Part shown: in pieces, positions 14,221 through 47,070 of the stretch
How positions within the stretch are numbered: position 1 is the first letter of the stretch
Layout of the letters: every line of letters begins with the position of its first letter
DNA from: Tubulanus polymorphus
Taxonomy: Eukaryota; Animalia; Nemertea
Length of the DNA stretch: 64,000 nucleotides
Reading direction: 5' to 3'
Assembly: GCF_964204645.1 (NCBI RefSeq)
Contig: NC_134027.1
Location: 13,548,485-13,612,484 of the forward strand
The notes under the pieces: generated by a model
What the model saw: the letters and a program-made list of their open reading frames with translations, nothing else
The model's database searches: none
What the model was told of the DNA's origin: nothing
Translations under genes and position numbers: made by a program

Positions 14221-15349
14221 ATGGATTTAACTAGAGCCAAGTCGTGGTCGAACGACATGGAATACGCTAGATCGATAGAACTTTTTCTTGTTGTCAGGAA
14301 AATCGGACTTAATGTGAAAGATGTTCAGGAATTTTTTGGAAGAAGCCTTGAAAGATAGAACCTTTAAGGCTTGCGTTAGGAAAGCTGAAGACTTCACTCC
14401 GTTCAATTATGGAATTCATTGCAAAGATCAAAACGCTTTTGACCTCCTTAAGAACCACGATTTGCAGATCAAAGATAAAACGGTTACACTTCGTGCGCCG
14501 AAGGAAACGCCGACAATTATACGGATAGAGGGAGTACCATCCAACTGCCCTCACAGTGTAATCGATGAAATTCTGAGTGGATACGGTACTATATTAAACA
14601 GAACATACCACCCGACTTTTGCGAAGACAGACATCGAAAATGCCGCAAAAAGAATTACCGAGATGTCGATATCTAAAGCTATCCCTAGGAATATAGCAAT
14701 GAAATCAGCTAACGGACTTGTGCTAATTCGAGTTTACTATAGCGGTCAGCCGGAACATTGTTTATTGTGTAATAACTTCAACCACACGTGGGTCGAATGT
14801 AAGGAAGCAAGTTGTACGCATCCTACCCATCCACCGCATAAATGCCGCCAATTGTTTCACCGAAATGCTCAACAGAATCGACAGTACGAACTACAGTACC
14901 CGACGATCGAACAAACTTCAACGAAACCGACAGTGGAAGATTGCGAAAAACGTAAAAGGGCTTCGCTTTCTTCATCCGACGAATCTGCGCCACAAACACC
15001 AAGGAAAAAATCGATACAGGACAAAAATACCGTCAATTGCGATAGCGGACCATTGAACGAATTACAGAATAAGTTACATTCTGTAATCAACCAAAGTTCG
15101 AACACTTCTCTTAATGGAACAGACCGCGAAAGTGACTTTCTCCGCAGCGCAAGTTTTGAAGGGCTAACGACCAACCAACTCAACAGAGAACAAGACACTG
15201 ACAATAAACGGTTAAAGGAAATGTACAAAGTAAGGGGAAAATTAACGTCGAACCCCTCGTCAGAAGACATTAAAACGCTGAAACATCGTATCTCAGCGAG
15301 AGAAGAGGAAATAACCCGCCGTAAAGCCAAAATCAACAAGAAGAAATGA
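14221..15349 (+). pseudogene. Tx1 ORF1 (gag-like, zinc knuckle); probable 1-nt frameshift in the T-run near 14335
   Basis: IRIEGVP, YSGQPEHCLLCNNFNHTWVEC (CCHC); upstream ATG at 14221 is out of frame by one base. Confidence 0.8.
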
Positions 15350-15545
15350 CTAAGCGGTAAGAGAATTGTACCAAAGCGCACTGATTTTGCCATTGAATAC
15401 TTGAACATTAGACCTTTTAGGTATATTTGGGAAACTGAAATGCTAAACAGATTAATTGAACAGGCTTCGAAAACTCTCTCGGTTTGTGATATTAGGAAAA
15501 TTGTTACAAAGTATGAAATGATTAATTCTTGTAAACCTCTGTAAG

Positions 15546-18500: not shown

Positions 18501-19361
18501 TATGGTAATTTCAAAGATATTGATAATTTTACGCCGATATTAGTAGACGAAGGAAAACACAGCCGAATTTACGCTGCTATACCTCGCGAATGGCGGGTCA
18601 CCCTGGGTGACGAAACCATTGATGATAATAAAAAATCAGCTTACACAATTAAAATACAGAACTATAGAAAACCATTAGCTGATACTTCGATGCGCGAAAT
18701 ATATAATGCCATAGTCCATGCAAAATTCGGCCACATAAAACCAATTAGTCAAAATAAAATCCAAACAATTCTAAACGAACATAACATAAATTGGGCTCAA
18801 ATATGGGGAGACATTTATCATCCAATAACTGAGAATAAATTAGGGGATATGCAATGGAGGTTTCTACACGATACCCTAGCTACAGCAACTAAACTCGTGA
18901 CATGGCAAGTTTCTAACGACCCTACCTGTAAAATATGCGGCCGTGCAGCCACTAATACGCATGTCATAATTGAATGTCCGGCAGCTGTAAGACTTTTTAC
19001 TAGATTTCAAACGATAATAGCTCAGGTAGCAGAACAACCAGCCCTCTTAACTAAACGTACAATTTGTTTTGGTTTTTCTAAACAAGCGATCATAAATCCA
19101 CACAGTAGGCGTATATGTAACTATTTGATAACGGTCTTGAAATGGACACTGTATAAGAATCATCGCAAGGCATGCGCAGGAGAAACTGAACTAGATATGA
19201 AAAATTATGCTCGTAATTTTATAGCCAAACGATTGAAACAGGAGATTACGGCCAGGAAAAATATTAATGTTTGGACTCAAAATGAAACACTGATCAGATG
19301 CAACGGAAATAATTACTTTATAAATGAAATAGCACTCAGTACGATTAATGATATTTTGTAA
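15546..19361 (+). CDS. Tx1 ORF2: AP endonuclease + reverse transcriptase + C-terminal Zn finger
   Basis: SLNCNGL, LLQETH, GGDFN, SDH; KSPGIDG, WRPITLL, GVRQGCP, QYADD; CKIC..H....C; intact 1271 aa. Confidence 0.97.
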   Translation: MATDGMKIASLNCNGLVASKIKRLNIFDRLKHFDIFLLQETHIRNEDEAKTLFKSISKEYEIFTNNNINRINGVAIGISRKSHFDLGHCTRDTQGRGICLKLLIGNERYKIINIYAPSKDRQKKEYFQSIPDLIGNAENTKLIIGGDFNCIENYSLDRQSAHSNPKATYGAEQLAQLCSSYCLEDPFRALNPAKKVFTRLTNVNNTITMTRIDRFYVSQCVTSDIETIAHLNSIHSDHKLVSMTIRTNQPPKGKGFWHLNNDLLNNEEYIELITNTWSKWQKHKVLYDNILQWWDDGKKLIKSKSTQFSKKLAKSRNELKRRLENELYVLESRASEGLNYNRNRLKDIITIIKQIDDNKTKGNMIRAKIEWREEGEKTSKFFANLEKRRGKINRINGLYNDFEELKTDQNDIMDIEVSFYKKLYTREVTNPVTQERFLHNLPQVQNPEIIDGPITLEELTNSVKSFKLDKSPGIDGLSSNFYVQFWPILKYDFHEVVCECIRLNTITESMKIGVITLIHKRGERTRLGNWRPITLLCTDYKIITKTISNRLITVLTDIIDPDQTCNVKGRRIHDNCHIIRDLIQYTNDENIEAFLLAIDQMKAFDRVDWSYMFKSLKSFGFGENIIKYIEMCYSDPKSLIKSNGFLTNPFSLERGVRQGCPMSALLYIIVAETLAIRIRRDPEIEGITLPNGEVCKMKQYADDTTLTVTSIESIKKLFHVLTEFEQSSGAKINKEKTEGLWIGASKNRTDKPLNLNWSNRHIKIYGMYFGLGDIDKLNWERKINTITNIINQWRQTKLSYKGKRVVINSFILPVLWYVSEIYPIPNIYVERIQKKINDFLWSYGKHYVRAEIIYQPLSSGGLAINNISCRVMAQRARTILVEMNRGSKWRTLLNYYLNQVLGQGWSIDSLINENFINRETRNSYYKSLLTAWKYVMALVEPKWSKHDIKNNLVFNNPSITVNGRTLNYPEYTDIGLTNIKHFFDEYGNFKDIDNFTPILVDEGKHSRIYAAIPREWRVTLGDETIDDNKKSAYTIKIQNYRKPLADTSMREIYNAIVHAKFGHIKPISQNKIQTILNEHNINWAQIWGDIYHPITENKLGDMQWRFLHDTLATATKLVTWQVSNDPTCKICGRAATNTHVIIECPAAVRLFTRFQTIIAQVAEQPALLTKRTICFGFSKQAIINPHSRRICNYLITVLKWTLYKNHRKACAGETELDMKNYARNFIAKRLKQEITARKNINVWTQNETLIRCNGNNYFINEIALSTINDIL

Positions 19362-19812
19362 GGCCAGAAAAGAGCGTTTAGGTTTCTGTAAATAGCAATT
19401 AAATCGTTTTATACATACTATACATGTGACTGTGAATGATGACTTGATATCTCTATACTAGACAAAAGTATTCCTATTTTGTAAATATAAAGAATAATTT
19501 GTGTCATTACGGATAATGTGTAAATATTGGAAAGAATTAAACGATGTATGTATGATGTGTAGTGAAATGTTCCAGTTAACGCAGTTTGAATTGTCTTCTT
19601 AATATACATATACGACTGTTACTAACCAGTGTTAATGAATAACGTTTAAATCGAATTGAAAAGAATTAAATATACATTTATGATTGCTTGGAATATGATG
19701 TAAATACCTCCAGTCCCCCACCTGACTCCAGTGGGTGTGATGTAGTTGTTATGGAGCCTTCCTTTTGTTAAATAAAGTTAAAAAAAAAAAAAGAAAAAAA
19801 AAATTTTGAAAA

Positions 19813-27210: not shown

Positions 27211-27413
27211 TCAATTAGAATTGCAAAAGAAAATATTGAAAATATAATAGAATTCACTATATAGTTGAAGGAATTGTTTTTTTTAATACTTTTTATTTAA
27301 ATTAGGATTCAATATCTCACTACTATTGTCTATCTATAGGAGCGGTAACTATAACTGTCCAGATAAGTCATTTCGGATCCTTGATATCAAATCCTCAACT
27401 GAAAATCAATCAA

Positions 27414-27608
27414 TTCGGAAACGCTATGGCCTATTGAATTGAGGTATATTAGTTTACTGTCACCAACCTAGATATTAAATATCGACTTAAAAAACGTTAT
27501 CGATGACATTTATATCTTTTTTTGAAAAACAATGAAATAAATGACCATTTTCAAGCGGGTGACAGTAAACTAATATACCTCAATTCAATAGCCATAGCGT
27601 TTCCGAAA
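27414..27608. mobile_element. Small MITE-like inverted repeat with ~55-bp arms, related to the 25102 element
   Basis: ttcggaaacgctatggcctattgaattgaggtatattagtttactgtcacc and its reverse complement. Confidence 0.7.
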
Positions 27609-27653
27609 TGATGCCGCATCGGTAAATATCCACTTCCCCTTAGAGAAAATAGA

Positions 27654-27830
27654 TTACGAACCTGATGTAGTTGCCTCAACATAATCACTCATCGTAGAAT
27701 GGCTTTTACAAATAACGCTGTGTTTTGATGGTTGCCAGTTCGCCTCTCCCCTTCGAACAGCGGTGATCCAAATCTTGCGTCTCTTCTCATCTCTCGGAAA
27801 GGCATGCCCCCAAGCGTTCCACAAAGTGGA
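27654..27830 (-). pseudogene. THAP domain fragment
   Basis: HAFPRDEKRRKIWITAVRR..WQPSKHSVICKSH. Confidence 0.8.
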
Positions 27831-28339
27831 ACACAACACTCCGTGGGCATTGTTAGATATAATACAACGCTTTAAAGCGTTCAGTAAAAGTGGCGATGCG
27901 CGGTGGTGAATGGCGCCATTGTTCCGGTTCAAAATAACCGAGTTGACGATCAACGCCGCCTGGGAGCAGGTGCGCGAAGGCGGGAGCCCCATTCATTTTC
28001 ACAACAACGCTGGGTTATTTGTATTTATATATATTTAACAACAGCTATGTGACTTTGGAATACTCCGAGCTGTAATAATGTGAAATTCAAGCCACTTCCC
28101 AAACTCACAAGCTATGTTTTGACTTGTGTTAAATTTTAAGCGTAAACCTGGTTCAACTTCAAGTTAATTATGTTCTACGCTAGATATCTTTTAGATAACA
28201 AAATGAAGACGATTGAATCAAGAAGGTGAAGATGGATTCTGAATCAGAAATTATGGATATTTCATCACAAGAGACTGAAGCTGTTTCATCATGCTGTATT
28301 ATATATGCCGGAATTGCGCAGTTGCGCGTACATTAGTCC

Positions 28340-28635
28340 TTCGGCCGTTATTAATGGTGACGGCTGTTCTGTATTGATTGGTTACTGTTAACTGGTATTG
28401 ACGCATGCGCACTGAGCAAAAGCGGTCGTCTAGGACCGGATTTCTATTGTTCTCCATTGTTCTATCTTCGATCGTTGTTGATAGAAACGGCTGTTCTGTA
28501 TTGATTTGTTACAGTTCTATGTTTGAATGTTGTAGCTTACAGAATAAATTATATAATTGACGCATGCGCACTGAGCAAATGCCGTCTTCTTGGACCGGGT
28601 TTCTATTGTTCTCCATTGTTCTATCTTCGATCGCT
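28340..28635. repeat. Imperfect tandem duplication
   Basis: acggctgttctgtattgatt and ttgacgcatgcgcactgagcaaa...ttctatcttcgatcg each occur twice. Confidence 0.75.
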
Positions 28636-29139
28636 ACAATTTGCATTATAAATATATGTGTTTATGAAATAGTAATTCCACCAGGCGTTTCGTTGAATTG
28701 ATTTTCAGTTGAGGATTTGATATCAAGGATCCGAAATGACTTATCTGGACAGTTATAGTTACCGCTCCTATAGATAGACAATAGTAGTGAGATATTGAAT
28801 CCTAATTTAAGTAAAAAGTATTAAAAAAACAATTCCTTCAACTATATAGTGAATTCTATTATATTTTCAATATTTTCTTTTGCAATTCTAATTGACGATA
28901 GATTAAATAGATTTTGATAAGATTTGAATAAAAATTACATATCTTTAAATAGATAGTGAATTCTTCTATTATATTTTTATTTAAAATCTATTATTTCTTT
29001 TCAAAAGGAGAATACTTTATATTTTGAATAGATTTGAATAAAAAACTATAACTTCAACTAGCTAGTATTTAAAATTCTTTAACTTTTTAACTAGCTAGAA
29101 TACTTATAATATTTTTTTCGCTTTTCTCTAATATAAATT

Positions 29140-30830
29140 AATGTAAAAATAATACCGATATTGAAAAGACAATTGAGGATTTAGGTATTACAGATAATAA
29201 AGATACAGTTGTTTCTAATTGTGCTCAAAATAATAATAATATTGATTTTGAATATAATTTAACATGTAAGCACCATCTTGAATTACTAATTGCTGGTGGA
29301 AAATCTAAGGATTTCTTGGGGAAAATTAAAACTTTTCAAGAATTAGATAACATGAAACCAGATAAAGTAATAAAACATTTCAAAATATATGAAGAAGCTA
29401 GATTAGCCAGAATAAACTATTCTATAAGTGATGGAATAGTAAAATGTTACTCTAAATTATGTAACCGGATTATACCATTTGATGATGAAAATAAATTATA
29501 TAGTGATTTAAAAAATGACTACTTGGTTATGACAGAATTACAAAAATGGGTTGGATACGCTTCATTCCAATTAGGAGGAATAATGACGGTGTTGTCATAT
29601 CGCGGAAAGACGGAATCGCGGAATTTTCCAAAAACGCGGAATTTCTTCATTTTAACTATAAATAGTAAACGGGTTTTCCCACGGGGATACCCACTGTCGG
29701 ACAGGGCATCGGACCCAGGTTTTCAACCACGGGAATTAGTATTTGATAATTTATTATATCGCCAGTCAACAACTTAACGATACTGTTCCAAATAATGTAG
29801 AACCTAGGCAATACGTGCTTTGCGAATTCAGTGATACAGAGTATCGCTGCATTAACTGAAGGAATACAAATCGATGGTACGTAAACGTAGGATTTTCGAC
29901 GACACCATGGGTCATTCTCCAGGACTCAGTTCCGAGTTAAGATTTGACTCTGGTCTCTGGATTTAAAACATTGGAAATGAATTGATTCTAAGTAACTCAG
30001 AGTTAACTCACAACTGTGGAACTGGATCGATGTCAGACGAAAATAAATAGACATTATGTACATTTCATTCTGGCTTAGGATTGTTCATGCGTGTTGTGTG
30101 TCTACATTGTTGTTATGAGCGAATGTGGTTTATCTTTTAGAATTAAATGATATGAAAGATTATAAAATGGTTTCGTTTTTTTTAATGTTTTCTTTGTGAC
30201 TGCTATAACATATATGTTCCTATGCTGATTATTTGGATCAAAAGAATCTCATTGGTACCGGTACTGGACGAATTTGACGAAGGAATTTGAACCGCTTCTT
30301 GTTTGGTCGTAGGATTTCATGTTTGCAACCATCTACAACTACGGTCCGACACCGCGAACGTGCTCAATATTTATCTGATAATATTCGTTTCTGAAGTTCT
30401 CAAAAAGTCGATGAACTTCGATAACCGAAGTTTGCCCAGTAGAAATAGACATTAGGTGCCTGGTCTCTTTCACCCCACTTGATTCTGACTTCTTCTACAG
30501 GTGGCAGCCAGTCAACGGTATCGTAATATAATAATTCCATATAAAATTGCCTGCAAATAATGGGACTCGAACCTAACTCGTTGCATCGATCGGTCCGGTG
30601 CCCTGTCCGACAGTTGGTATCCCCGTGGGAAAACCCGTTTTCTATTTAAAGTAAAAATGAAGAAATTCCGCGTTTTTTGAAAATTCGTCTTTCCGCGATA
30701 TGACAACACCGGAATAATGACATTGATTTCTACTGGAGTTATAACATTTTCTAATATCAAACCTATAGTATGTAAAGATAATAAATCAGAAGATATTGAA
30801 TCAGAACAAAAATTAACTAAAATAAATGAG
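29140..30830 (+). pseudogene. Family B homologue of the 201-aa gene, interrupted by an insertion
   Basis: KIYEEARLARIN, LYSDLKNDYLVMT; reading resumes after 30721 (LISTGVITFSNI). Confidence 0.8.
29588..30710. mobile_element. Non-autonomous DNA transposon, Mutator-like, ~125-bp TIRs
   Basis: ggtgttgtcatatcgcggaaagacg at both ends inverted; TSD ggaataatgac (11 bp, or 9 bp if the terminal C/G belong to the TIR). Confidence 0.88.
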
Positions 30831-31190
30831 TGATGATGTTAAGAAGAAGCCTAGATCTGAGAAACAAATTAAATGGACAAGGGTATTGGGTAAAAGATCT
30901 GCAGAATTAAAAATAGCTTAGAAAAAGAAATTAACTGATATAAATGAATCACAGAAATTATCTGTTATTGATTCGAATGATAATCCATCGGATTCTTCTA
31001 ATGCTGGAAGTAATAATAAATTAAATATTAAAATTGGATTAGTAACAGTTATTATATTTTCCGGTGTAATATATAAATATAAGTATAAATCTGATGAAAA
31101 TGATAATGATGATTATGAACCTATTATACCAGGAAATAAATCAAATGATGAAGTCATTGAAACTAAATCTAAATTATTATTAATGGATTA
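30826..31190 (+). pseudogene. Family B homologue of the 126-aa single-TM gene
   Basis: MSDDVKKKPRSEKQIKW similar to VKKKPRSQKQIEW. Confidence 0.7.
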
Positions 31191-32282
31191 AAATAAGATA
31201 AAAAAAGGACAATATTTAAGAGATTTATATTATAACCCAGAGAGTGAAGTATCATATTCTAGCGTTACAGAATTATGGGATAAAATTAAATCTGATAATG
31301 AAAATATAAAATATAGTGAATTAAAATTATGGTTACAAAATCAACCAACATATCAAATCCACAAGAAAATGGATAAAAACAATTTAACGAGAAAAGTTAT
31401 GGTTTCATATATTGACCAACAATGGCAAGCGGATTTAATTAACAGGAAAAACTTAGATGACACAACAAAGGATATTTCTGGATATTAAATGTTATAGATA
31501 TATTCAGTAGATACGCATGGATTATTCCAATTAAAAATAAAACAGGTATAGAAGTTACTAATGCTTTTAAATCAATATTTAAAGAAGCTATTCCAGGTAA
31601 GATACAATTCGATGAAGGTAAGGAATTTTATAATAAACATTTTTAAAAATTATTATCTGATAACGATGTAGATTATTTTTCAACACATTCAGATAAAAAA
31701 GCATCTATTATAGAACGGTTTAATAAAACATTGAAAACTAGAATGTGGAAATATTTTACTGCAAATGAAACATATAAATATACAGATGTATTAGATGATT
31801 TAGTGAAAGGTTATAATAATTCCAAACATAGTTCTATAAATATGAAACCTATACAAGCTAGAAAAGAAGATAATTTAGAAATAGTTTGGAATAATTTATA
31901 TGGAGCATTTGTAACACATGATTTTGGAGAACCTAAATTTAAAATAGGACAAAATTTTAGAATATCTAAATATATAAAAACATTTTATAAAGGTTATACT
32001 CCAAATTTTACTGAAGAAATATTTAAGATTAAAAAGATAATACTTACTAATCCTTTTGTTTATAAATTTGAAGATTTAAAAGATGAAGAAATATTAGGTT
32101 ACTTTTATGAACAAGAATTATCATTTGTACCAAATCCAGATGAAATAGAATACAAAATAGAAAATGTATTGAAAACAAAAAATCTTAAAGGAAAAAAGTA
32201 TTCTCTGGTAAAATATAAAGGGTATGATGATAAATTTAATGAATGGATTTTATCTAGTAAAATTAAAAGAATAAATGAATAA
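31183..32282 (+). pseudogene. Family B rve integrase with chromo-like tail
   Basis: QQWQADL, IDIFSRY, QFDEGKEF, IERFNKTL, LVKYKGYDDKFNEW; several lesions. Confidence 0.9.
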
Positions 32283-32897
32283 AGATTTATTTGTATTTGA
32301 ACCGCATAATATGTTAGTAAGTGGAGTAACAAATTGTGGTAAAACACATTTCATATTAGACTTATTGAAACCATTTATAAGAATCATTTTGATAATATAA
32401 TATTATTTTGCACTACTTATGAAATGAATAAAACATATAATAGAGATATAGTTAAGATAAAAAAGTTCATTATATCAAATCCTAAAATAGTAAAAGAAAA
32501 TTTAGATAATTGTTTTAAAATAGCAATTGATATTTATAAAGGTAAAAAACAAAAAACAAATACATTATTCATTATAGATGATTGTGCTAATCTACATGAT
32601 TCAAAAGTTAGAGAAAGTGAGTTATGCTATTTAGCTTTCTCTGGGAGACATTTTGGGATAACAACATGGGTTTTAAATCAAAAATATAATTCAATTGTTA
32701 AAGATTTTAGGGAGAATATTAGATTTTTAGTTTTATTGTACAATAAAGATAGAAAATCAATGCAACAATCATTGGAAGAAAATCAAATTATACCTACTGA
32801 ATTACATGATGAATATATGAATAAATTAAAAAGTAATAAAGGTTCCAAATTACTTCTGAGGCTTCAATTTCCTTATGAATATAAATTTATAAAATAA
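32275..32897 (+). pseudogene. Family B packaging ATPase
   Basis: GVTNCGKT, FIIDD, SGRHFGI; frameshifted. Confidence 0.88.
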
Positions 32898-33030: not shown

Positions 33031-33059
33031 GAGGGCAACATATATAATTTACATATGTT

Positions 33060-33148
33060 AGTAATAGGAAGATGTGGGTTTCAGATCAGAGGGCGAGAGG
33101 CGAGACACCACTCATCACCACAAGTAATTTTTTCCCCTAATAAATGGG
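33060..33148 (+). repeat. Left TIR of A2
   Basis: Reverse complement of 46063-46152; AG...CT termini. Confidence 0.95.
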
Positions 33149-36100
33149 GGAGAATGAACACCAGCCAGAAAATAATAATGTTAATAAAAATCAATATTAT
33201 TGCACATATTGTAAAAAATACGTCGATACATCTCATAAAACACGACACGAAAAAACTGCAAATCATATAAAAAATGTTATAGATTTTGAAACTCCAGAAA
33301 ATTCCAATGAAAGAAAAGAAAGATTAGAAAATATGAATGTGGATGAAATAAAATGTGAAGTTTGTAATGAATGTATAGTAAAAAGGAATTATAATAGACA
33401 TCTCGAATCACAAAAACACCATCAAAATTTGAGTAATAATGTTTTAGGAAAAGATTATTTTGACGATAAACCTCAAAAAGTAAAAAAACCAACTTCAAAA
33501 ACTAAATCCATTTCAAATAAACCTTACATGGAAAATGTTAGAAATTATATTGATTCACTAGAAATAAAAGATACAATTGAAATTTTAGAAACATTACATA
33601 GTAAAATTGGTCCTGCAGCTATTATATTTAGATTTTTTAAAGGTACAACAATAGAAGATTATAGTACATTTAATGAAATAATAGAAAAAATACTAGATTT
33701 GATAACAGATGTTGAATATCCAAAAATTAGTATCTCTGGGAAAGTAAGTTTTATAAAGTCAGAAGAAAAAATGAATTATAATATTCAAACACACTCTGAA
33801 GAAATAATTTCAAAAACACAAATAAAAGAGAAGTTAGAAAAAATATTTAATGAATTTAAACGTCATATTGAAGAAAGATATTTTGAGGGTTCTGGCTTAA
33901 CATTGAATGAAATTATATATTTAGATTTAAATGTTTATAATACAAAAAAGAAATAAAACATCAAAAAGTAATAAAATGTTTAAAAATGATTCAAACTTAC
34001 AACAGAAAAGGATATTAAAGCATCATCTTATATTAAATTAACATTTACAACAAAAGCAGTAATAAATATTCAAAATGAAGATAATAAATGTTTTCTATGG
34101 TCAATTATTAGTTGCTTACATCCAACACAGGAAAATGTTTGTAGAATAACAGATTATCGGAAATATGAAACATTATATAAAATTGATCAATATCCAGTAA
34201 CTATAAAAATGATTCCTAAAATAGAAAAAGTTAATAATTTAAAAATAAATGTATTTGAATTAATGCAATTACCAAAGACAAAAGGTGAAAATATTAAAGA
34301 TTATACATTGGAAGCTTTATATTTAACAGAATATTATGATGATGAAAATGCTATAGATTTGTTATATTATAAAAAAGATGAAAATGAACATTATATGTGG
34401 TTAAAACAAATTGATTTATTCTTTAGAACAGAAAGTGATCATCATCGTAAAATTTATCTATGTAGAAAATGTTTATCTAAATTTATGACTGAGAATACAT
34501 TATTAAAACATAAAGAATTATGTGATAATAAAGATTTTTGTAAATTAATAATGCCAACAGAAAAAGATTATAAATTGAAATTTACTAATCATATATTTAA
34601 GAATATTGTTCCATTTGTAATTTATGGGGATTTTGAATCGTTGAATAAAGAATTAACTGATAAAATAAAAGAATAGTTATGACAAAAGAAGATGAAATTG
34701 ATTTTAATTATGCAACTCACTGTTGTTATTGTGAAAAACGTTTTTATTCATTTGATAAAAAAGTTAGAGATCATGATCATTTAAATTCAAAATATCGTGG
34801 AGCTGCTCATGAAGATTGTAATTTACAAGCTAAAAAAGTAAATTTCGTACCAATATTATTTCATAATTTATCAGGCTATGATACCCATCTATTTATAAAA
34901 CAATTATCGGGAAAATTGGGCGCAATTAATCAAGAAATAGAAGAATATAATGCTATGAATGGTGTAAATGCAAGAAAATATGATTTTAAACTATTAGCTA
35001 AAACATCTGAAAATTATATTTCATTTCAATTTGGTTGCATTAGATTTTTAGATTCTTATAGATTTCTAGCAAGTTCATTAGATAATTTATCAAAAAGTTT
35101 AGTTGATAATGATTTTGTTATAACTCCATATTATTATCCAAATGAACAAGATTTTAAATTATTGAGATATAAAGGCGCAATTCCTTATTCATTTTATAAA
35201 ACACACAATGATTTTAATGTAACAGAATTATTAAAAGATCAATTTTATGATCAATTAAAAGAGGAGTATGTGACGAAGTGTTTAATAGAACATTAAATAT
35301 TTGGAACCATTTTAAGATGAAAAATCATGGTGAATTAGTTGATTTATATTTAAAATCAGATGTTATGATATTGGCTGACATATTTGAAAAATTTGGAGAA
35401 GTTAATTTGAATCATTTTAATGTTGATCCTTGTTATTGTTATTCAAGTCCTGGTTTAACCTGGCAATGTGGTTTAAAATATACAAATGTAGAATTAGATT
35501 TATTAAAAGAACCAGATATGGTTTTATTATTTGAAAAATCAATTAGAGGTGGAATTAGTGGTGTTATGGGAGATGTTATGGGGTATTTTAAAGCAAATGA
35601 TGAATATAAATTATTATATATTGACGCCAATAATTTATATAGCTGGGCAATGATGCAACCTCAACCGTATAAAAATTTTATATTAACAGAAGTTGAAAAT
35701 GATGATAAAACTAATTGGGAAAGCGCAACTATGAGTTTAGAAGATGAAGCACCAATTGGTTATTTCTTTGTAGTTGTTTTAGAATATCCTGAAAATATAA
35801 AGTTTAAAACAAGAAACTTACCTTATTGTCCAGAACATTTAACTGTAGATGATAGTTATTTAAGTGAATACCAGAAGAAAATAAAACCGAAAGATCATGT
35901 TTTTACAGAAAAATTAATACTTACTCAAAATAATAAATACAATTATATTGTTCATTATAGAATGTTAAAATTTTATCTAAAACAAGGAATGAAATTAAAG
36001 AAAGTACATAGATATATTGAATTTAATCAATCGAAGTGGTTAGAAAAATATATAGATTTCAATACTCAACAGAGAACAATATCAAAAACAGATTTTGAAA

Positions 36101-37905
36101 AAGATTTCTTCAAATTAATGAATAATAGTTTTTATGGTAAAACATGTGAAAATATTAGAAATAGAAATGATATTGAATTAGTAGATAATTCTGAAAGATT
36201 AAGACACCTACAATCAAGTCCTAGACATTTAGGAAATAAAAAATTTGAAGATTATTTAACAGCAGTTAAATTGAAAAGAACGTCAAAGAAATGTAATAAA
36301 CCTATATTCATTGGTTCAACTGTTTTAGAAGTATCAAAATTATTAATGTATGATTTTTATTATAATGTTTTACAACCACTTTTTGGGGAAAAGCATATTG
36401 AAATATTATATTTTGATTCTGTAACAGCTGACACCCCAATATTATTAAAATGTAATGATAAAATATTAATAAGAAGAATTTCAGAAATAATTCCAAAACA
36501 AAATGAACGTTATATTTCATATGGTGAAAAAGAATTGATACAAATAAATGGATTAATGGATGTTTGGACAAGAAATGGATGGAAAAAATTAAAGAATATT
36601 ATTAGACATAAAACAAATAAGAAAATCTATAGAGTTAGAACTAAATTAGGGTTAGTAGATGTTACAGAAGATCATAGTTTAATTAAACGAAATGGCGATG
36701 AAATAAAACCAACTGATATAAAAATTGGAGATGAATTATTACATAAAAGATTTTTCCAAAGAATGAATCATATGTCATTTGATGAAATAATTGATAATAT
36801 TTATAATATAGAACCCGAAACATTAGAAGAAAAAGAATATTTTATCATAGGATTTTTTATGGGTGATGGTTCAGCAGGTGTGTATAATTATGTTAATCGC
36901 ACTCAATATTGCTGGTATTTATGCAATCAAGATTTGAAATTATTAGAAAGAATAAAGAAATTCTGTGAAGAAGTTTATTCACATAAAACATTCAAAATCA
37001 TAGATGTTATGAAATCATCGCAATGTTATAGAATACATGTGAATAATCCTAAAGATTTTGCTATAAAATATAATGACGAAATCTATATTCATGCAATAGT
37101 GAAAAGTAATACTTCAACTAAAGAAAAGATAGTTCCAGATTATGTATTAAATGTAAAAAATAATTTAAGAAAATGGTTCTTCATTGGATTCTACGCAGCA
37201 GATGGTACTAAAAGTTTCAAAAACCGCAAAACAATATCTTTAGCTCAAAAAGGAAAAGTTGCTATATCAGGATTAAATATATTATGCAATTCATTAGGTT
37301 TTAATATGAATATTGGATTGATTAAATCTAAACCAAATTGCTTTAATTTAAGCCATGTAGAAAATGAGTTAACAGAAGAAGTTAAAGATTTATTTGAAAT
37401 ATATAACCCAACAGATTATGTTTATGATTTATCAACTGAAGATTGTACATTTAACCGTGGATTTCCATTAATAGCAGTCAATACTGACGCGTACATACTA
37501 AAAATCAAGACAAATGACATAACAAAAGACTTAAAAACATTAAAACATCATTTTGATTTTAGCAATTATCCCAAAGATCATGAACTATTTAGCAATGATA
37601 ATAAAAAGATTCCTGGTAAATTTAAAGATGAATTAGGGGGTGATGAAATGATTGAATTTGTTGGGATAAGAAGTAAAATGTATAGTTATAGAACAAAAGA
37701 TCATGAAGCTAAAAAGTTAAAAGGAATAACAAAACATGTGGTTGATAAACATATAGAATTTCAAGATTATATAAAGTGTTTATATAAATCAATTGTAATG
37801 AAACATAAAATGAATTGTTTAAGATCAGAAGATCACGAGATGTACATTAATGAAGTTGAAAAAACTAGTTTAAATCCATTTGATGATAAAAGGCACAAAA
37901 ATTAA
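33144..37905 (+). pseudogene. polB: Protein-primed family B DNA polymerase (pPolB), disrupted, intein-containing
   Basis: Zn fingers, FEGSG, NKCFLWS..HYMW, ExoI YGDFES, RDHDH..AAHEDCN, ExoII FHNLSGYD, FLDSYRF, YIDANNLY, KLMNNSFYGK, YFD|TDA, PGKFKDE, SKMY, KLKGI, FDDKR; split over four ORFs. Confidence 0.95.
36418..37482 (+). mobile_element. Intein (355 aa) with LAGLIDADG homing endonuclease, in PolB motif C
   Basis: Block A SVTADTPILL, block B VTEDHSL, motifs IIGFFMGDGS and FIGFYAADGT, block F YVYDLSTE, terminal Asn followed by Thr; removal restores YFDTD. Confidence 0.95.
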
Positions 37906-37975
37906 ATTAATTGTTAAATTAATCATAAATAAGTTGACTAAATATTTTGAAGATAGTAATTTTTTTGATTAATAA

Positions 37976-38968
37976 ATGAGTGATAATAAGTGGATAATAA
38001 CTGGATTATATAATGGCGCCTTACTATCAGTTGGAACTGTTGGTTATTCAATGGTATTAAAAAAAGTATTTGAAAGGGAAGTGTTAATGTTGATAGATTT
38101 GATATAAATGATATTTTAAAATTAACATTAGCAATTACTTTATCTAATTTAACTATTGATTATTTGGAAAAACAAAAATATATTCCTCCCATATAAATGC
38201 GTAATTATTTTACTAAATAAATGGCTTCTGCAATTATAACTATTATAGGATCGGCAATTCTTAACGCTTTAGCATTTACTGGTGGCGGTTATTTATTTAA
38301 GCATATTGATAAAGATAGTTCATTAGGAGAACAAAGAAGACATAATTTAGCATTAGAGAAATATAATAAAGCAGCAGAAGAATATAGAGAAAAGAGGCAA
38401 AACTATATGGATTATATTAACAAGGAATTATATGATCAGAAGATTTCACATAGAGATTTTCAGTCAGTCGATGATGCAATGAGTTTATGTAACGCGGTAA
38501 CCAATAAAGAAAAATTACATCTATACAAACCTAAATTATCAGATTATTATACCCCGAGTAAAGAACAACAGAAATATGAAATAATATGGATTTTAGGTGA
38601 AACAGTTATTGTCATATAGATTTACTAAGTAGTAATTTTTTTTCTAAATAAATCGAAGTTAAAGTTGATAGTATTGATATTATTCCTCATGATATAAATA
38701 AAACTAAATTAAAAATATATTTAGAAAAACAAATATTAGAATTTGAAAATGATTTAAAAGTTAAAAAGAAAAAATATTTAAAAAGTAAAATTATATATTA
38801 TCTTATTATTAGTGGTTCGGTTACAATTAGTTCTGTAATAACATTTCTAGCAATATTCAGTCCATTAACACCTTTAGCTATATCAATTGGTGTGTTAGGA
38901 TTAAGTTCAAGTGTTTTAACTGGTATAAGTTCAAAATTAAATATAAAAAGTAATAAAGAAAAAATTAA
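37976..38968 (+). pseudogene. A2 copies of the 73-, 140- and 144-aa membrane genes, followed by a ~1.4-kb deletion
   Basis: Colinear with 5414-6418, then jumps to the equivalent of ~7820. Confidence 0.85.
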
Positions 38969-39049
38969 TTAATTGATTAGCTTTAACTTGTATAGGAATT
39001 GTTATAGGAGGAATATTATATTTCAAATTTTAATTTTTTTATTATATAA

Positions 39050-40510
39050 ATGGATGTAGAAGGTGGAGAAGATATTGGAATGGATCCTTTAGATGAACCT
39101 GGTATAACTGATGAACAACAACCTGATTTTAGTGAAACAAGTTTTAATGACGGTAATGAGCCACAATATAATAATAATTTAAATATGCCTGATTATATTA
39201 AAAACGCAGAATCACAATTAAATCCTGAAAATTGAGACTCAGATTTAGTAAAACAAGATTTAGATAATTTAAACAAAATACGTAAATTAGAACATTTAAT
39301 TGAAAATTCTAAACTTAATATAAATGATGAAGACGTTGGGCCTTTAGTAGTTCAATTAAAATTTTTAGATAATGGTAAATGGTATTATCATTTGAAAGGT
39401 GATTATTATATTGATATCACTTATAAAAATAATAAAAATAAAATATTATCAAAATCAACTTTGAGTAATTTAGATCCAGATAGAATTAAGAGAATAAGTA
39501 ATAGTAATGAAATAACTGATGTTACGCAAAAAGAAAGAGATGATAATATAGACGTATTTAAACAAAGAATTAATGAATTATTTGAAACAATCAAAAATAA
39601 ATCAGAAACAGAAACAACTTCTGAAAAGAATATAACTTCCAAAACTAGTAAACTTAAATCAAATAAAGTTCCAATTGAAAAACTTTTACCGAATGGATTA
39701 ATTGATGCAACAGATCAAGAATTAGAAGATTTAAATAATATATTTTCTGTTGAAGCAATTAGAGAAATTAAAAGTATAAGACTTGCATCTGATTAAATTG
39801 CGCATGATAAAAGTATAAGAGATTTTAAAATTAGAACTTTAGAAAAAGAATTAACTGATAAAAATAAAGAAATAGAACAATTAAAGTCTGATTTAGATCA
39901 TCAAGTAATTGACGAAATAGAATATAGGCAAAAAGAATTACGTTTAGAAAAAGAAAAAGATGATTTAGAATATAACATAGAATTACAAAAAGAAAAAATT
40001 AAATTATTGTTAAAATCATATGATGATAATATTAATAGATTAAAAGTTATTTTTAAAGATTTGTTGATAAAACCAAATTCTGAAATATCATTAAAAGATA
40101 GAATAAAGTTATTATTTAAATTAGAAGGAATAACAATTCTTTCAATTCTAACAGCTGTAACTCTGTTATTTACAACTATTGGTTTAGCAATATCAAATGC
40201 TTTAAAATCTACTCCTACTCCAAATAAACCAGATAAACCCCCAGGTAATAATTCTATACAAGATAAAGTTAAAGATGGTTTAAAGAAATTAGCAAAATAT
40301 TTATGGAAACTATCTAAAAAATCTGCTGCAGCTTTACCAGGAATTATTGCATCAATTGTTGGTTTTATATTAAAATCTGCTGGAAATATTCTTAACTTTG
40401 CTGCTGAACATATTACTTTATTTTTAATTACAGTTGTAAGTGCTAGTATTTTTGGGTTAGTGAATATGATATCAAAAAGATATCAAGAAAAAATAATAAA
40501 AAATAAATAA
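39050..40510 (+). pseudogene. A2 copy of the ~487-aa coiled-coil/TM protein
   Basis: Homologous to 7892-9355 with different stop codons. Confidence 0.85.
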
Positions 40511-40529
40511 TTAATTTTTTGTTAAATAA

Positions 40530-41777
40530 ATGAGTGGGTGTTATATAAGGCCTTCTAAGATTTCTAGAATATCTAATGCTATTAAAGCAGAAAGATCACA
40601 TCATATAATTACACATAATCCTTCAAATATTAATCCCGATAAAACTTTATATGTTAGAATTCCTAGATTAACACAAAATACTTTTTATGTTCCAAATAGT
40701 ATTTATTTATCGACTGATATAAAAGTAATTGGTCATGATAATAATTATGTTGTTGATAATGTTGGGAGATATTTGATTAAAAAATTAACTATAAAGATTG
40801 GTCCAGAAACAGTTTTCTCATTAGATGATTATAATTTATTTATGCATTATAAAGATTTATGGTTAACTAAAGAAAATAGAAATAATATGATATTTCAGGG
40901 TATTCAATCGGAAAACCATAATAAATTAAGATCTGAAGCCAATAATGCAGTAGTAACTAATGCTGTAGATAATTCGATAAAAAAGATTTATGGAAGCAAA
41001 TATAAAATTCCATTAGACTTTGAAATTATAAATAATAATGCACCTTTATATAAATATGTAATTCAAGAAGATATTATATTTCAGATAACATTTGCTCCTG
41101 TAAATGAAATTGTATTATCTAGCGTTGTTGAAGATATGGGATATAAATTATCGAATATATGCTTAGAATATGATACAGTAACTAATGAAAATATTGCTTA
41201 CACAATTCAAACTCAATACAATCAAGGATTTTCATTATTATATGATTATATTGATAAATTTAAAACTGTAACTATTAATGCAAATGATGAAATAATTAAT
41301 GAGAATATTAACTTCCCAAGAAGACCTATTAAAGGTATATTAATATTTTTTACTATTGCAACATATTCTAATGGCGCAATAAATGTTGATAGTTAATATA
41401 ATCCTGAAATAACAAAAGTAGAAATAACTATCGAAGGAATAGCAAATAAAATATTTTGTCAAGGAATGAGAATGATAGATCAGTGGCCAGAAATTAGAAA
41501 ACATTTTATGAATGAAAAAGTAAAATAATTTGAAAATTGTAATATTAATCAAATTGATTATTATACCGGTAATAAATATGCATTATGGTTAGATTTTAGA
41601 ACAACAGAGGATAATTCATTACATGGTTCTGGAAAAAAACTACAGAACACTAAAGATGGAATACAATTATTCATGACAAAGAAAAGAGGAGACAGAAATT
41701 TCAAAATGCACATTTATATTATATCTGACGCACAATTAAATATTGTAAATTCACAATTAGATAGTATTCAATATTAG
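40530..41777 (+). pseudogene. A2 putative major capsid protein
   Basis: Homologous to 9376-10611; disrupted near 41396. Confidence 0.75.
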
Positions 41778-41807
41778 AAATATAAAGTTAAAATTAAGGA
41801 TATATAA

Positions 41808-42940
41808 ATGGGTGGTAAAAAAACTCCTAATACTAAAGAACAATATTTAAGAAATTTATATTACAACCCTGAGAGTTCGGTTGCTTATTCTTCTACCAAA
41901 AATATATGGCGTCAAGTAAAACAAGATAAATTAGATAAGATAATCCCACAAAATTTAGTTGAATATAAAGATATAAATGAATTTATGTTAGAACAACTAA
42001 CATATACAACACATAAACAAATTGTTAGAAAATGTAAAACTCGTAAAACTATGGTAAGTTATGTAGATCAACAGTGGCAAGGAGATTTAAATGATATGAA
42101 AAATGTTAAGAAAGATAATGATGATTATTGGTGGTTATTGAATATAATTGATATTTTTAGTCGTTATGTATGGAGTTTCCCACTTTATAGAAAAGATGCT
42201 GTGCAAACATCAAATGTTTTAAGAAAATATCATTCGGATGATAAACTAAAACCAGAAAAAATACAATTTGATGATGGAAAAGAATTTGATAATTCACTTG
42301 TTCATGAACTCTTAGATAATCATAATATTAAATATTTTTCAACAAAATCGGATAAAAAAGCAGCAGTTGTTGAACGATTTAATAGAACATTAAGAACAAG
42401 AATGCGGAAATATTTTACAGCAAATAATACTTTTAAATGGATTGATGTTCTACCAAAATTGATAGAAGGATATAATAATTCTTATCATTCTTCTATTGGA
42501 ATGAAACCTATTGATGCTAGAAAACCTGAAAATGCTGAAATTGTTTGGAATAATTTATATGGAGCATTTCTTGTAGATGATTTTGGTGAACCTAAATTTA
42601 AAGTTGGTCAAAATGTTAGAATTTCTAAGTATAAAAAGATATTTGACAAAGGATACGATCGATAAATTTTACTAGGGAAATATATGAAATAAAAAAGGTA
42701 ATAACAACAAAACCATATGTCTATAAATTAGAAGATTTAGATGGTGAAGAAGTTGATGGCTACTTTTACGAAGAAGAATTAAGTTTAACTACTGAAAATC
42801 TAGAACAAGAATATAAAATTGAAAAAGTATTAAAAGCAAAAACTATTAAAAGAAAAAAATATTCTTTAGTAAACTGGGTTGGATGGCCAGATAAATTCAA
42901 TGAATGGATATTATCAAGTAACATTAAAAATATATAAATG
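41808..42940 (+). pseudogene. A2 integrase
   Basis: Homologous to 10642; frameshift near 42663. Confidence 0.92.
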
Positions 42941-43536
42941 AATAAGGAATTATTTATATTTGAGCCTCATAATATGTTAACTTCTGGTGTAACAAATTGT
43001 GGAAAAACTTATTTTATATTAAATTTATTAGAAACTTTATAAAAACTATTTTGATAATATAGTATTATTTTGTCCAACATATGAATTTAATCAAACTTAT
43101 GATAGAAATAATACTAGAAATAATAAATCTATTATATTAGATCCTAAAACAGTAAAAGAAAATTTAGATAATTGTATTAAAATAGCAATAGATATTTATA
43201 AAGGATCAAATACATTATTCATTATAGATGATTGTGCACATTTACATGATTCAAAAATTAGAGAGAGTGAGTTATGCTATTTAGCTTTTTCTGGCAGACA
43301 TTTTGGGATAACAACATGGGTTTTAAATCAAAAATATAATTCAATTGTTAAAGACTTTAGGGAGAATTCTAGTTTTATTCTACAATAAAGATAGAAAATC
43401 GATGAAAAATGCACTTGAGGAAAATGATATTATTCCACATGATTTACATAATGAATATATGGATAAATTGAAAAATATTAAAAGATCAAAATTACTATTT
43501 AGATTACAACGCCCATTTAAATATGAATTTGTTTAA
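42938..43536 (+). pseudogene. A2 packaging ATPase
   Basis: TAAATG start, GVTNCGKT, FIIDD; small deletions. Confidence 0.88.
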
Positions 43537-43812
43537 ATTCAACTAGCTTGTTAATCTAGTATATTTTTTAGTTATATTCTAGTTTAATTCTAGTTATTGG
43601 TATTTGGAACAAAAATCAACTAGATTTAACAATATTTTAACTAGCTTGTTAATCTAGTTTAATTCTAGTTACATTCTAGTTGAATTCTAGTTGTTAGTAG
43701 TTGGAACAAAAATCAACTAGATTTAACAAGAAATAAATAAAAACAACAATATTTCAACTAGCTTGTTAATCTAGTTGAATTCTAGTTACGTTCTAGTTGA
43801 ATTCTAGTTGCA
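43537..43812. repeat. CTAG-core repeat array (A2)
   Basis: Matches 12378-12650. Confidence 0.85.
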
Positions 43813-43841
43813 ACATCACAACTAATGTTTTTGTTATATAA

Positions 43842-44400
43842 ATGGTAGGTGAAGAGAAAATAAAATCTAAAAATGGTGATGTTCCAATTGAAAAAACTTT
43901 AGATGATTTAGGAATAACAGAAAACAAATTAATTCCAGATGATGGTGCTTTAAATAATGTTACAACAAATAATAATTATGAATATTATCTTTATTGTAAA
44001 CATCAATTAGAAATATTAATAGCATCTGGAAAATGTAAAAATTTTATCGGTAAAAATTCAACTTATAATGAATTAGATACAATGAAATCAGATGAAATTT
44101 TTAGATTATTTAAGATTTATGAAACCGCGAGAACAGCTAGAATTAATGACGCGATATCAGAAAATGTAGTAAAAGGTTATAGTAAATTATGTAATTATAT
44201 ACTACCAATTGAAGATGAAAATAGATTATATTCCGATTAAAAAATGGTTATTTAGTTATGACTGAATTAAATAAATGGATTGGATATTTATCATTTCAAT
44301 TAGGTGGATTTATGACATTATTATCAACTGGAGTTATAACATTTTCAAATATTGAAAGTAAAAATATTTCTATAATAAATGAACGAGGTGGAAGAAGTGA
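43842..44400 (+). pseudogene. A2 copy of the 201-aa gene
   Basis: Homology; premature stop at 44240. Confidence 0.8.
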
Positions 44401-44759
44401 AGAAAAAACCGAGATCACAGAAACAAATTGAATGGTCTCGGCAATTAGGAATTAAATCACAAGAATATAAAAAAGCTGTAAAAGAAAAAATAAGTAATAA
44501 AAATGTTAATGAAAATGGTGAAAATATTGTTATTTCTACTCCTTCTAATGATAGAATATTTGATAAATGTCTATATTTTACAGTTGGATTTGTAATTGTA
44601 TTCATTTTGATTGGGTGTAATTGGTATAAGAAATCAAATAAAATTCATGATATTAATAATTCTGGAACAACTGCTATCAAAAATGAAAATACTTCTGAAA
44701 TTCCAAAATTGATAATAAAAAAATGGATTAATATTCTAGAAAAAAAACAAAAAAAATAA
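44379..44759 (+). CDS. 126-aa single-TM protein
   Basis: Basic N-terminus, CLYFTVGFVIVFILIGC segment, TAAATG start. Confidence 0.7.
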   Translation: MNEVEEVKKKPRSQKQIEWSRQLGIKSQEYKKAVKEKISNKNVNENGENIVISTPSNDRIFDKCLYFTVGFVIVFILIGCNWYKKSNKIHDINNSGTTAIKNENTSEIPKLIIKKWINILEKKQKK

Positions 44760-45236
44760 TTGAATATCTGACTACTTTTGTCTATCTATGCGGAGCAATT
44801 AAATTGTCCAGATATGTCATTTCGGATTCTAGATATTCATTATTTTTATTAATTTATCTTGTTTTTTTAATTTGAAGTTTTTACTTGAATATTGTATTAC
44901 AGTCGTTTCTTATTATTAGTTTTTTCTTAAATTGAAAGATGGCAGCACTGGGTGTGATGCTAAAATGAATATTTGAATTTGAATTTGTTAATCAGTTAAC
45001 ATGGTAATTGATTACTAATTTGATTAAAAATTATATCATAATTAAGTTAAAAATCCATAATTCATTTATCAGTTTTCATTCCTATATTCTTTTCATTCAG
45101 AATAATTTATAATTTCAAATTTCACATATTTCTTTAGTAAACACCAGCAACATTTACATAGGTGTTTTAGCTAAGTATATAAGGCAATTCATTCCAACGC
45201 TGGAGTAGCATTGGCCAGCAGAGGCATTTTGAAAAT

Positions 45237-45437
45237 GCACCTTCGTCCACTCTCCGGGTTTCTCTTTCGGTTTCGAATTTCGAGATTGGTAGAAATTACA
45301 TTAGGCGCCTTTAATATAATGTGATTTCTGCCAATCATTGAAGGAGATCCCGGTTCACGTGGGTCGCGGGGGTGTAAGTAGAAATGACGGGGGATAAGCG
45401 TCCCGTGGCGCCTTTCAATAACGGGATGCTTATCCCC
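45237..45437 (+). ncRNA. Candidate structured RNA with two long hairpins
   Basis: 20-bp and 17-bp stems whose only mismatches are G-U on the + strand; shared loop GGCGCCTTT(C)AATA. Confidence 0.45.
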
Positions 45438-45740
45438 TGAAAACTCTGTAGGTCGAGGATAGGGCAATTTTGCTAAAACTTACCGTAAAAACATTGAAAT
45501 ATTCCTTTTAATCACGAGAGAGAATGACTATCCTCCTGTCCTGTGTGTGTTGTATGTACTGCGTTATTTAACTGCTATAACAACAACGTTGAATTGCAAC
45601 ACCTGTTTGATCGATCAATATTCAAATGAAGCACTCTCTTATAATAACATGTAACAGATGTTTGACTGTATGATTGTAGTTGTTTGTAAAACGACTAAGG
45701 TCATTTTGGATTCTAGATATTCATTATTTATATTTTTTAT

Positions 45741-46067
45741 TTAATCAACAATTTCTAAATCATGATGACCGTCTTCATTTTTCCCATGATAGATTATTTT
45801 AAATCCTTCTAAATCTTTTAATTCTTCTGTACTCAATGAAACCCATTTATCAGGTAAAAACACTTTAAATTGTCGCGATGTACTAACATTACAGTAGCTT
45901 AAATTCGCTGATACTTTCTCTCCATATTTAGTTTTTATCTTTTCTAATTTCAATATTTTATGTTCAATTTCTTTTGTAACATCAACTAACTTTTTTATTT
46001 CAAATTGTTTTTTTGCTGGTTTAATTCTGTTATTTATTGTTGCTAAGAATGCTTTTCTATCTCCCAT
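45741..46067 (-). CDS. Polinton terminal 108-aa protein (A2)
   Basis: Near-identical to 20263-20589. Confidence 0.8.
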   Translation of the reverse strand: MGDRKAFLATINNRIKPAKKQFEIKKLVDVTKEIEHKILKLEKIKTKYGEKVSANLSYCNVSTSRQFKVFLPDKWVSLSTEELKDLEGFKIIYHGKNEDGHHDLEIVD

Positions 46068-46152
46068 TTATTAGGAAAAAAAATTACTTGTGGTGATGAG
46101 TGGTGTCTCGCCCTCTCGCCCTCTGATCTGAAACCCACATCTTCCTATTACT
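46063..46152 (-). repeat. Right TIR of A2
   Basis: Reverse complement of the left TIR; followed by the TSD. Confidence 0.95.
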
Positions 46153-46421
46153 TATGTTTTTTATTTAAAAAACAGTACGAGTTTTATTTTATCAATTTTA
46201 TTAATTTTATACTATATTTAGATATTATCTTAATAAAATATATATATTATGTTAAATTTAATATAGAATACAAATATTATATATTTATATTCGTATCATT
46301 CGTACCATTCGCATGTTTAAAAGTGAAATATATATATTATTAAATCGTACACTCGTACACTAGTACAGTTCGTACCATTCGTACCATTCGTACACTCGTA
46401 CATCAATATGTAAATAAAAAA

Positions 46422-47070
46422 TTAATCTTTTTCAATTTCATATTTTTCTTTAAGCTTATTATATTCTAACAATATACTCCTTTTCATTGATATTGGTATA
46501 GTTCCTAAATGATTCCCGAGTTTATATTTATCGAATGTTGCTCTTGAAAATATTTTTGGAATATAATTTTCGATTTCAGTTTTAGATGGATGTTTATTTA
46601 AAAATTCTCTAAAATCATGATATTTAAGTTCAAATAAGTTCATTGCATAAGTTACATTTGGTTTAAAGTTATCTAACTTTTTCAATACGGTAACTATATC
46701 ATTACTCGAGAAATAATCTATAAATGTTTTTCTGTACCACCGATAATCTGATATATTCATTTTATTAAATTTCGGGTAAATAACTTTTGGATTTTCTATT
46801 ACATTATCTGTACCAATATGTTTAATTGAGTATCTATGATTCAATTGTTTATCATATATTACATATTCTTTACATTTTTCACACCAAGATTTAAATACCT
46901 GTATTGCATGGGCTGAATCATTTCCACCTTTGGTTTTTAATTTATAATGTTTTGACCAATTAGTCTTTGCTATACATTCATTACAGAAGGCACAATAATT
47001 TTGGTCTTCTTTGCATTTATCTTTTTATATATTAGCATATGTTTTTACTAATTGTAAAATATGTTCATTG
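46422..47070 (-). pseudogene. Hypothetical gene, probably family B
   Basis: AT-rich Lys/Asn/Ile-biased ORF 46422-46844 with coding-like sequence upstream. Confidence 0.45.

Follow-up and report, generated by a model that had tools for sequence, protein, structure and literature searches.

The locus described here raises the question of what a 1065-nt insert that splits motif C of a Polinton DNA polymerase is, and how it came to lie there. An earlier note on the 64-kb window (the whole stretch of DNA that was analyzed) had read the insert as a homing-endonuclease intein that crossed from a large DNA virus into a protein-primed polymerase during co-infection and was carried into a germline. The host gene was confirmed as such a polymerase, and it is part of a 13.1-kb element with inverted ends, a target duplication, an integrase and an ATPase. 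The features of this element, together with a second copy of the intein in the window, are as follows.

33060–46152, no strand assigned: host Polinton, 13,093 bp, delimited by its inverted ends, the target duplication and reads leaving at 33060
33054–33059, plus strand: left copy of the 6-bp target-site duplication, with an identical copy at 46153–46158
33060–33151, plus strand: left terminal inverted repeat, 95.7% identical to the right end over 93 columns
46060–46152, minus strand: right terminal inverted repeat, from comparison of the ends
33144–37905, plus strand: protein-primed DNA polymerase B gene, broken into pieces at 33144–33956, 33990–34676, 34664–35296 and 35251–37905
40530–41777, plus strand: probable major capsid protein gene in two pieces (weak Capsid_N match)
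41808–42937, plus strand: integrase with chromodomain in two pieces (rve E 1.5e-8; Chromo)
43032–43536, plus strand: A32-type packaging ATPase, in pieces (Pox_A32 E 1.5e-4)
63160–64000, plus strand: second intein copy, identified by alignment in another Polinton copy (starting at 59543), frameshifted and running off the window end

The size, ends and genes of the element agree with the account of Polintons in the accessible text of PMC10748475 (13–25 kb, inverted repeats of 100–1,500 bp and a 5–8-bp target duplication), its 93-bp repeats falling slightly below the range given there. A total of 325 reads exit the element at 33060 into unlike flanks. The rve integrase match was above its cut-off, and PF03175 was matched weakly by a piece of the window polymerase (E 1.4e-4) and above cut-off by intact relatives. 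A sister copy of the capsid gene at 9376–10611 resembles double jelly-roll capsid clusters, with a low recognition score, and there was no Pfam match to an adenovirus-like protease on the ORFs scanned in the decayed element or its sister copy, a scan that took in only part of the short ORFs. The polymerase gene is in four pieces and ends before its closest relative does, indicating that this copy is a fossil.

The intein-bearing Polinton sits within another Polinton-like stretch (window 29142–32897 and 46422–47024), whose integrase and ATPase are ~74% identical to those of the inserted element, and three or more copies of this Polinton family are nested in the window. A Tx1-like LINE with an open 1271-aa ORF2 (14098–19803) is inserted in the first Polinton copy, and at 27211–28895 a 200-bp inverted pair (99%), which partly matches Polinton sequence at 13615 and 44759, flanks a THAP-domain ORF. 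The window also contains a BEL/Pao element and other LINE remains, and no host gene lies within it. BEL/Pao elements are described in the accessible part of PMC3118150 as a metazoan subclass, and their presence along with the THAP ORF and the LINEs makes an animal host genome likely. The earlier reading of a germline host is upheld to that extent; the intein sits in a mobile element and not in a host gene.

The insert itself is stop-free and in frame within the ORF at 35317–37905, with ILYFD upstream and TDAYIL downstream, so that motif C is cut at D/TD. Its parts are as follows.

36418–37482, plus strand: intein coding sequence, 355 aa, open (HMMs and structure model; borders from empty alleles)
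36418–36750, plus strand: N-terminal part of the Hint domain, blocks A and B with Ser1, Thr83 and His86 (TIGR01445 over residues 2–88, PI-PkoII match over 20–111, conservation)
36823–37356, plus strand: LAGLIDADG endonuclease domain, ~residues 136–313, with Asp150 and Asp262 in its two motifs (HMM, conservation, model, I-DmoI matches)
37378–37482, plus strand: C-terminal part of the Hint domain, with block F Asp337 and block G Val354-Asn355 (conservation, model)

We identify the insert as a class 1 intein that interrupts motif C of a protein-primed polymerase and carries a LAGLIDADG domain with two motifs. The residues, HMMs and structure model agree with the intein-endonuclease identification made previously from the intein blocks and the paired LAGLIDADG motifs. 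Ser1, Thr83 and His86 of block B, Asp337 of block F, Asn355 and Thr+1 are all in place, as are the acidic residues Asp150 and Asp262 of the nuclease, and the residue list agrees with that for class 1 inteins in the accessible part of PMC7765530. In the HMM search that the earlier note had proposed, the insert scored above cut-off with TIGR01445 (intein N-terminus; 33.4 bits, cut-off 24.5) and LAGLIDADG_3 (30.6, cut-off 22.5), and its match to Intein_splicing (E 1.8e-7, 31.5 bits) was below the cut-off of 35.8. The top sequence match among solved structures was PI-PkoII (PDB 2cw7, E 1.1e-7). An AlphaFold2 model of the intein, made from an 81-row alignment, had a mean pLDDT of 94.7, and its top PDB matches were the endonuclease-bearing inteins TliVMA (E 1.3e-17), PI-PkoII, PI-PfuI and PI-SceI, plus I-DmoI. 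Its top viral matches were polymerases of a phycodnavirus, pandoraviruses, a marseillevirus and a megavirus. The two LAGLIDADG helices in the model span residues 136–150 and 248–262, with an acidic residue at the end of each. The insertion site, YxD/TD of motif C, and the kinship to inteins at that same site place the insert in the pol-c allele group; TDS follows 147 of the 156 inteins extracted from RNA-primed PolBs. The window polymerase also has an endonuclease VII-like (HNH) stretch, which is separate from the intact intein.

Other identities for the insert were considered and rejected: a Hog-type Hint, as an endonuclease is present and empty alleles exist; a class 3 intein, as position 4 of block F is Asp; and an assembly chimera, as raw reads span both intein junctions and the intein occurs twice in the window. 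The two copies are identical at 789 of 840 aligned bases, with indels of 1, 24 and 10 bases.

Natural empty alleles fix the borders of the intein exactly. The intein-less alleles whose search had been advised turned up in ~12% of the raw reads of run X6, from the same species, which were the portion examined: 46 reads, from 28 starts, join 36417 to 37492 and so skip the intein. The same nine letters lie within this joint in 20 of the 46 reads, four of the nine differing from the three post-intein codons of the window. Mean read depth over five intein bins was 0.55 of that over six flank bins, and by eye was nearer 0.3 on a short stretch, which suggests that roughly a quarter to a half of the related copies are filled, a proportion that without a single-copy control does not convert to a copy number. 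Empty alleles also exist in two other Polinton families, in each of which filled and empty proteins share one 90% cluster and are separated by an exact gap (346 aa and 339 aa). In the first cluster (15 of 136 members listed, 11 long ones compared), all five empty proteins differ from the filled representative at 9–11 of 30 site-adjacent residues and at 13–55 of ~1,100 elsewhere (p 2e-5 to 1e-10), and all six filled proteins differ from it at 1–2 of the 30. This pattern is the expected trace of co-conversion or of target escape, without telling which. The flanks in the second cluster are identical, as would be expected from either exact loss of the intein or clean homing.

The polymerases nearest to that of the window (84–53% identical) are empty. 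Of 119 newly found polymerase relatives, 109 are empty, three are filled and seven are without the region, in a search whose 1509 aa ceiling excludes most full-length filled proteins. Motif C, the presumed homing target, is normally near-invariant but appeared highly variable in the 107 empty polymerases among P0167–P0285 in which it was readable, with YMDCDSF in 39, YMDTDSF in 33 and other variants in the rest.

No fewer than seven other clusters of Polinton polymerases, including one from the other polymerase class, have related inteins at this site. The best full-length kin, in protein-primed polymerases, are 62% (P0003), 49% (P0004), 47% (P0005), 46% (P0006 and P0008) and 40% (P0011 and P0012) identical to the window intein, and Polinton intein fragments reach 74%; inteins of giant-virus-type PolBs follow at ~30–41%. 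From the stored proteins 218 full-length inteins were excised by rule, and removal of 16 near-duplicates left 202, among which the nine Polinton rows form one branch (support 1.0). A quick tree (68 rows of 213) gave the Polinton clade support of 100 and placed it beside a group with three giant-virus MAG loci (95). In a careful 37-row tree the clade had support of 100/100, its sister was unsettled and the outgroup did not fall on one side of a branch. The phylogeny, also advised earlier, recovered the Polinton inteins as one clade among giant-virus PolB inteins, and an AU test did not reject placement of P0006 outside the other eight (p 0.36).

Comparison of the inteins with their flanks gave two kinds of result. 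The intein is 45% identical to that of one giant-virus PolB whose flanks are 21–22% identical, and P0006, in the other class of Polinton polymerase, has an intein that is 42–49% identical and flanks that are 17–31% identical (in one contrast, 47% against 28–31%). Taken together, intein identities of 42–49% were seen between proteins with flank identities of 15–31%. These contrasts show movement between polymerase types. Among polymerases of the main class, by comparison, the identity of the intein rises and falls with that of its flanks (for example, 60/62/57 and 81/77/86 percent), which argues for an old association. The intein and polymerase trees agree on three deep groups, and the GC of the window intein is 0.25, compared with 0.24 and 0.25 in its flanks. 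Because similarity to the query decided which sequences entered the sets, too few archaeal and phage alleles are represented in them, and the direction of transfer, as well as co-infection as its route, is something we infer from trees whose root is not fixed.

Searches of metagenomic data identified additional carriers. IMG/VR yielded 37 intein loci, the best 41% identical over full length, with no Polinton-type carrier among the 37. A degenerate junction pattern recovered four metagenome loci (one Polinton-type polymerase with an intein, two giant-virus-type and one unassigned) plus one viral locus identical to one of them. A locus in a public assembly (L040, 104–1129, minus strand) is a Polinton-type polymerase with an intein (46% identical) that has a stop within it. 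Kin of these inteins that start with Ser were also seen at TDQD and TEGD sites of type II topoisomerases (P0007, P0072, P0077 and others), some of which hold several inteins, which may be read as non-allelic spread from Asp-flanked sites. In the P0428 cluster (55 members on long contigs; the representative and 14 members examined at the protein level only), several ORFs consist of an intein with ~11 residues before it and 4–7 after it, followed by a stop. These ORFs may be inteins that were stranded or inserted ectopically and then multiplied independently of the polymerase.

Intein presence is patchy among Polinton polymerases. In a polymerase phylogeny built from the 330 residues that precede the site (56 rows, of which 12 are filled; three rows omitted as the motif was missing), presence changes 10 times, at least seven of which are forced by well-supported branches, and this total is no lower than in shuffles. 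Together, the patchy presence and the clustering of differences at the insertion site point to homing. Asp150 and Asp262 are both kept in all eight aligned Polinton inteins, and among the relatives are found in 178 and 187 of 202, respectively. The 16 full-length Polinton inteins extracted (337–354 aa) included no endonuclease-free mini-intein. Filled, uninterrupted polymerases of 1476–1693 aa are present in several lineages, including seven of the 15 listed members of one cluster, and retention of the intein in frame at the active site across lineages that are ~45% alike makes splicing likely for the family.

Whether the window copy itself splices is a separate matter. His86, Asp337 and Asn355 are found in all 202 extracted inteins, a set chosen partly by those motifs. 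The penultimate residue of the window intein is Val354 rather than His, as had been pointed out from the letters, and the lack of His is ordinary in this allele group (His in 119 of the 202, Lys in 65, Ser in 10, Val in three; 83 without His). Inteins without a penultimate His can still splice, a premise that is least secure for the Val type. The Polinton clade, the window copy included, also lacks the block F His, and with both His residues missing Asn cyclization is in doubt for that copy. Val is carried by ~63% of 101 reads, the remainder having another codon, and a private mutation of the window copy was rejected on that ground. Among the 26 best-supported of many more variable places, 16 of 22 intein variants common to the species' copies are at third codon positions (p 1.8e-4), whereas the four private to the window copy all affect a first or second position, and two of these lie in the splicing region at the C-terminus. 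The third-position bias of the shared variants suggests that the family intein is under purifying selection while the window copy is drifting; the intein of the window copy is decaying and may not splice.

We consider it quite probable that the family intein splices by the class 1 route, that its nuclease homes into empty Polinton copies, and that the family goes back to one old entry from giant viruses followed by one crossing between polymerase classes, with splicing, cutting and direction deduced from sequence comparison. Splicing would begin with an N–O shift at Ser1 aided by Thr83, His86 and Asp337, proceed by transfer to Thr+1 and end with cyclization of Asn355, leaving the polymerase with its catalytic YxDTD motif rejoined. 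In homing, the target of the nuclease would be an empty motif C site, either in another copy or in element DNA undergoing replication, and repair off a filled copy would bring in the intein and nearby flank. The presumed origin is a single old transfer from the pol-c pool of giant-virus PolBs, which would have required Polinton and giant-virus DNA to meet in one cell, after which the intein would have descended for a long time together with one polymerase class, been gained or lost repeatedly near the tips of the tree and jumped at least once from one Polinton class to the other. A stronger version is that the intein is a homing gene drive of animal Polintons, giant-virus-derived and able to jump between classes, that converts dispersed germline copies, with changes in motif C sparing the empties; we hold this tentatively, at somewhat less than an even chance.

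The patchy distribution could also have arisen if a true intein, acquired once, had only been inherited since then, with homing lost and the empties due to repeated precise loss or to recombination with intein-free relatives. The joint rise and fall of intein and flank identities in the main class, the deep groups shared by the intein and polymerase trees and the identical flanks of one filled/empty pair are all as this explanation would have it. It leaves unaccounted for the nuclease residues kept in eight of eight aligned Polinton inteins, the lack of a mini version among the 16 full-length ones, the concentration of differences at the site and the presence of an intein in the other polymerase class, and we regard it as unlikely. 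An intein that does not splice, a dead or parasitic allele whose filled copies have no working polymerase and are moved in trans by empties, would suit the window copy, which is broken and lacks both His helpers of the last step, as well as the frequency of Val at the penultimate codon and the abundance of empty copies in the species. However, the third-position bias among the species' variants and the uninterrupted filled polymerases of several lineages are against it, and a penultimate His is also absent from 83 of the 202 relatives, so that this explanation appears very improbable.

Least credible, and largely refuted, is a recent single transfer from a co-infecting giant virus to this element, then fixed in the germline, the history closest to that first put forward. 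One part of the earlier proposal that stands is that the nearest kin outside Polintons are in the RNA-primed PolBs of giant viruses, and the emptiness of the closest polymerase relatives would likewise suit a recent arrival. The nearest inteins of all, however, are in other Polinton polymerases (62–74% identical, the giant-virus ones only ~40–45%), the intein equals its flanks in GC, and the Polinton inteins are one old clade spread over many lineages and both polymerase classes, which does not fit a single recent crossing. Our preferred reading thus remains a splicing and homing family of old giant-virus derivation.

A clade of inteins borne by Polintons represents a route by which a full intein can persist in what are likely animal chromosomes, and widens the range of the pol-c allele from RNA-primed to also protein-primed polymerases. 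It records gene flow between giant viruses and Polintons, which bears on the open question of whether Polintons depend on, or come into contact with, large DNA viruses. The occurrence of filled and empty alleles in one species makes homing and resistance to it testable in a multi-copy family. There is also a consequence for annotation, as an unrecognized 350-aa insert can distort the lengths and trees of Polinton polymerases. If the gene-drive reading is true, no lineage of splicing and homing inteins would have been known before this one to reside in animal chromosomes, and the lineage would preserve a trace of an encounter between Polinton and giant-virus DNA within one cell.

According to surveys, the nuclear inteins of eukaryotes are found mainly in fungi, algae and protists (PMC5784728 and PMC10710043, in their accessible parts). 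Green et al. (PMC5784728) list fungi and some protists as carriers of nuclear inteins and four families of giant viruses as carriers of viral ones, and the word polinton does not occur in the text available. In the accessible portions of PMC12220804, PMC3671162, PMC5718144, PMC13768754 and PMC7765530 inteins are mentioned in general terms only, and intein is not found in those of Starrett 2021, Barreat and Katzourakis 2021 and Kazlauskas 2020. The earlier note did not treat an intein as a standard Polinton feature, and in the open literature (subscription papers, Repbase entries and supplements aside) we likewise found no report that a Polinton polymerase, or an animal chromosome, carries an intein with a Hint domain.

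The Hint domain of Hedgehog/Hog proteins is likewise a Hint fold in an animal genome, but it lacks an endonuclease and does not interrupt a reading frame of which empty alleles exist, whereas the best fold matches of the window insert are intein-endonucleases. Closer in setting are the HNH and VSR nuclease insertions in Polinton protein-primed polymerases described in the accessible texts of Jeong et al. 2023 (PMC10748475) and Krupovic et al. 2024 (PMC11161782), which resemble the window case in having a nuclease domain inside a Polinton polymerase. Those are fused nuclease domains for which these texts report no Hint (intein and hint do not occur in that of Jeong et al.), whereas the window polymerase has its HNH stretch plus a separate, complete intein. 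A single sentence in Krupovic et al. raises the idea that the nuclease insertions of Polinton polymerases stem from intein invasions, and our results provide direct support for the suggestion that inteins invade these polymerases.

The accessible text of Gallot-Lavallee et al. 2023 (PMC10710043) describes viral-like DNA polymerases that carry inteins and are encoded on nuclear scaffolds of Klebsormidium, Tetrabaena and a labyrinthulomycete, as well as inteins in Pol delta/zeta of Chloropicon, whose Pol delta intein (P0086) is a relative of the window intein at 32% identity. These cases are alike in that virus-borne polymerase inteins are lodged in eukaryotic chromosomes, but they concern viral-like or cellular polymerases of algal and protist genomes (animal and metazoa do not occur in that text, its supplement aside), whereas the intein described here belongs to a transposon family of many copies, with both filled and empty alleles, in a genome that is likely that of an animal. 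Mimivirus and archaea already provide examples of the pol-c site and of this type of allele (PMC549080, accessible part), and the pol-c PolB inteins of Mimivirus, phycodnavirus, pandoravirus and marseillevirus, together with the archaeal PI-PkoII (PDB 2cw7), share with the window intein the YxD/TD site, Ser1, the terminal Asn, Thr+1 and two LAGLIDADG motifs and are its best sequence and fold matches. Unlike them, the window intein is hosted by the protein-primed polymerase of an integrating 13-kb element, with flanks only 21–22% identical to the RNA-primed hosts, lacks both the block F His and the penultimate His, and belongs with the other Polinton inteins to a clade of their own.
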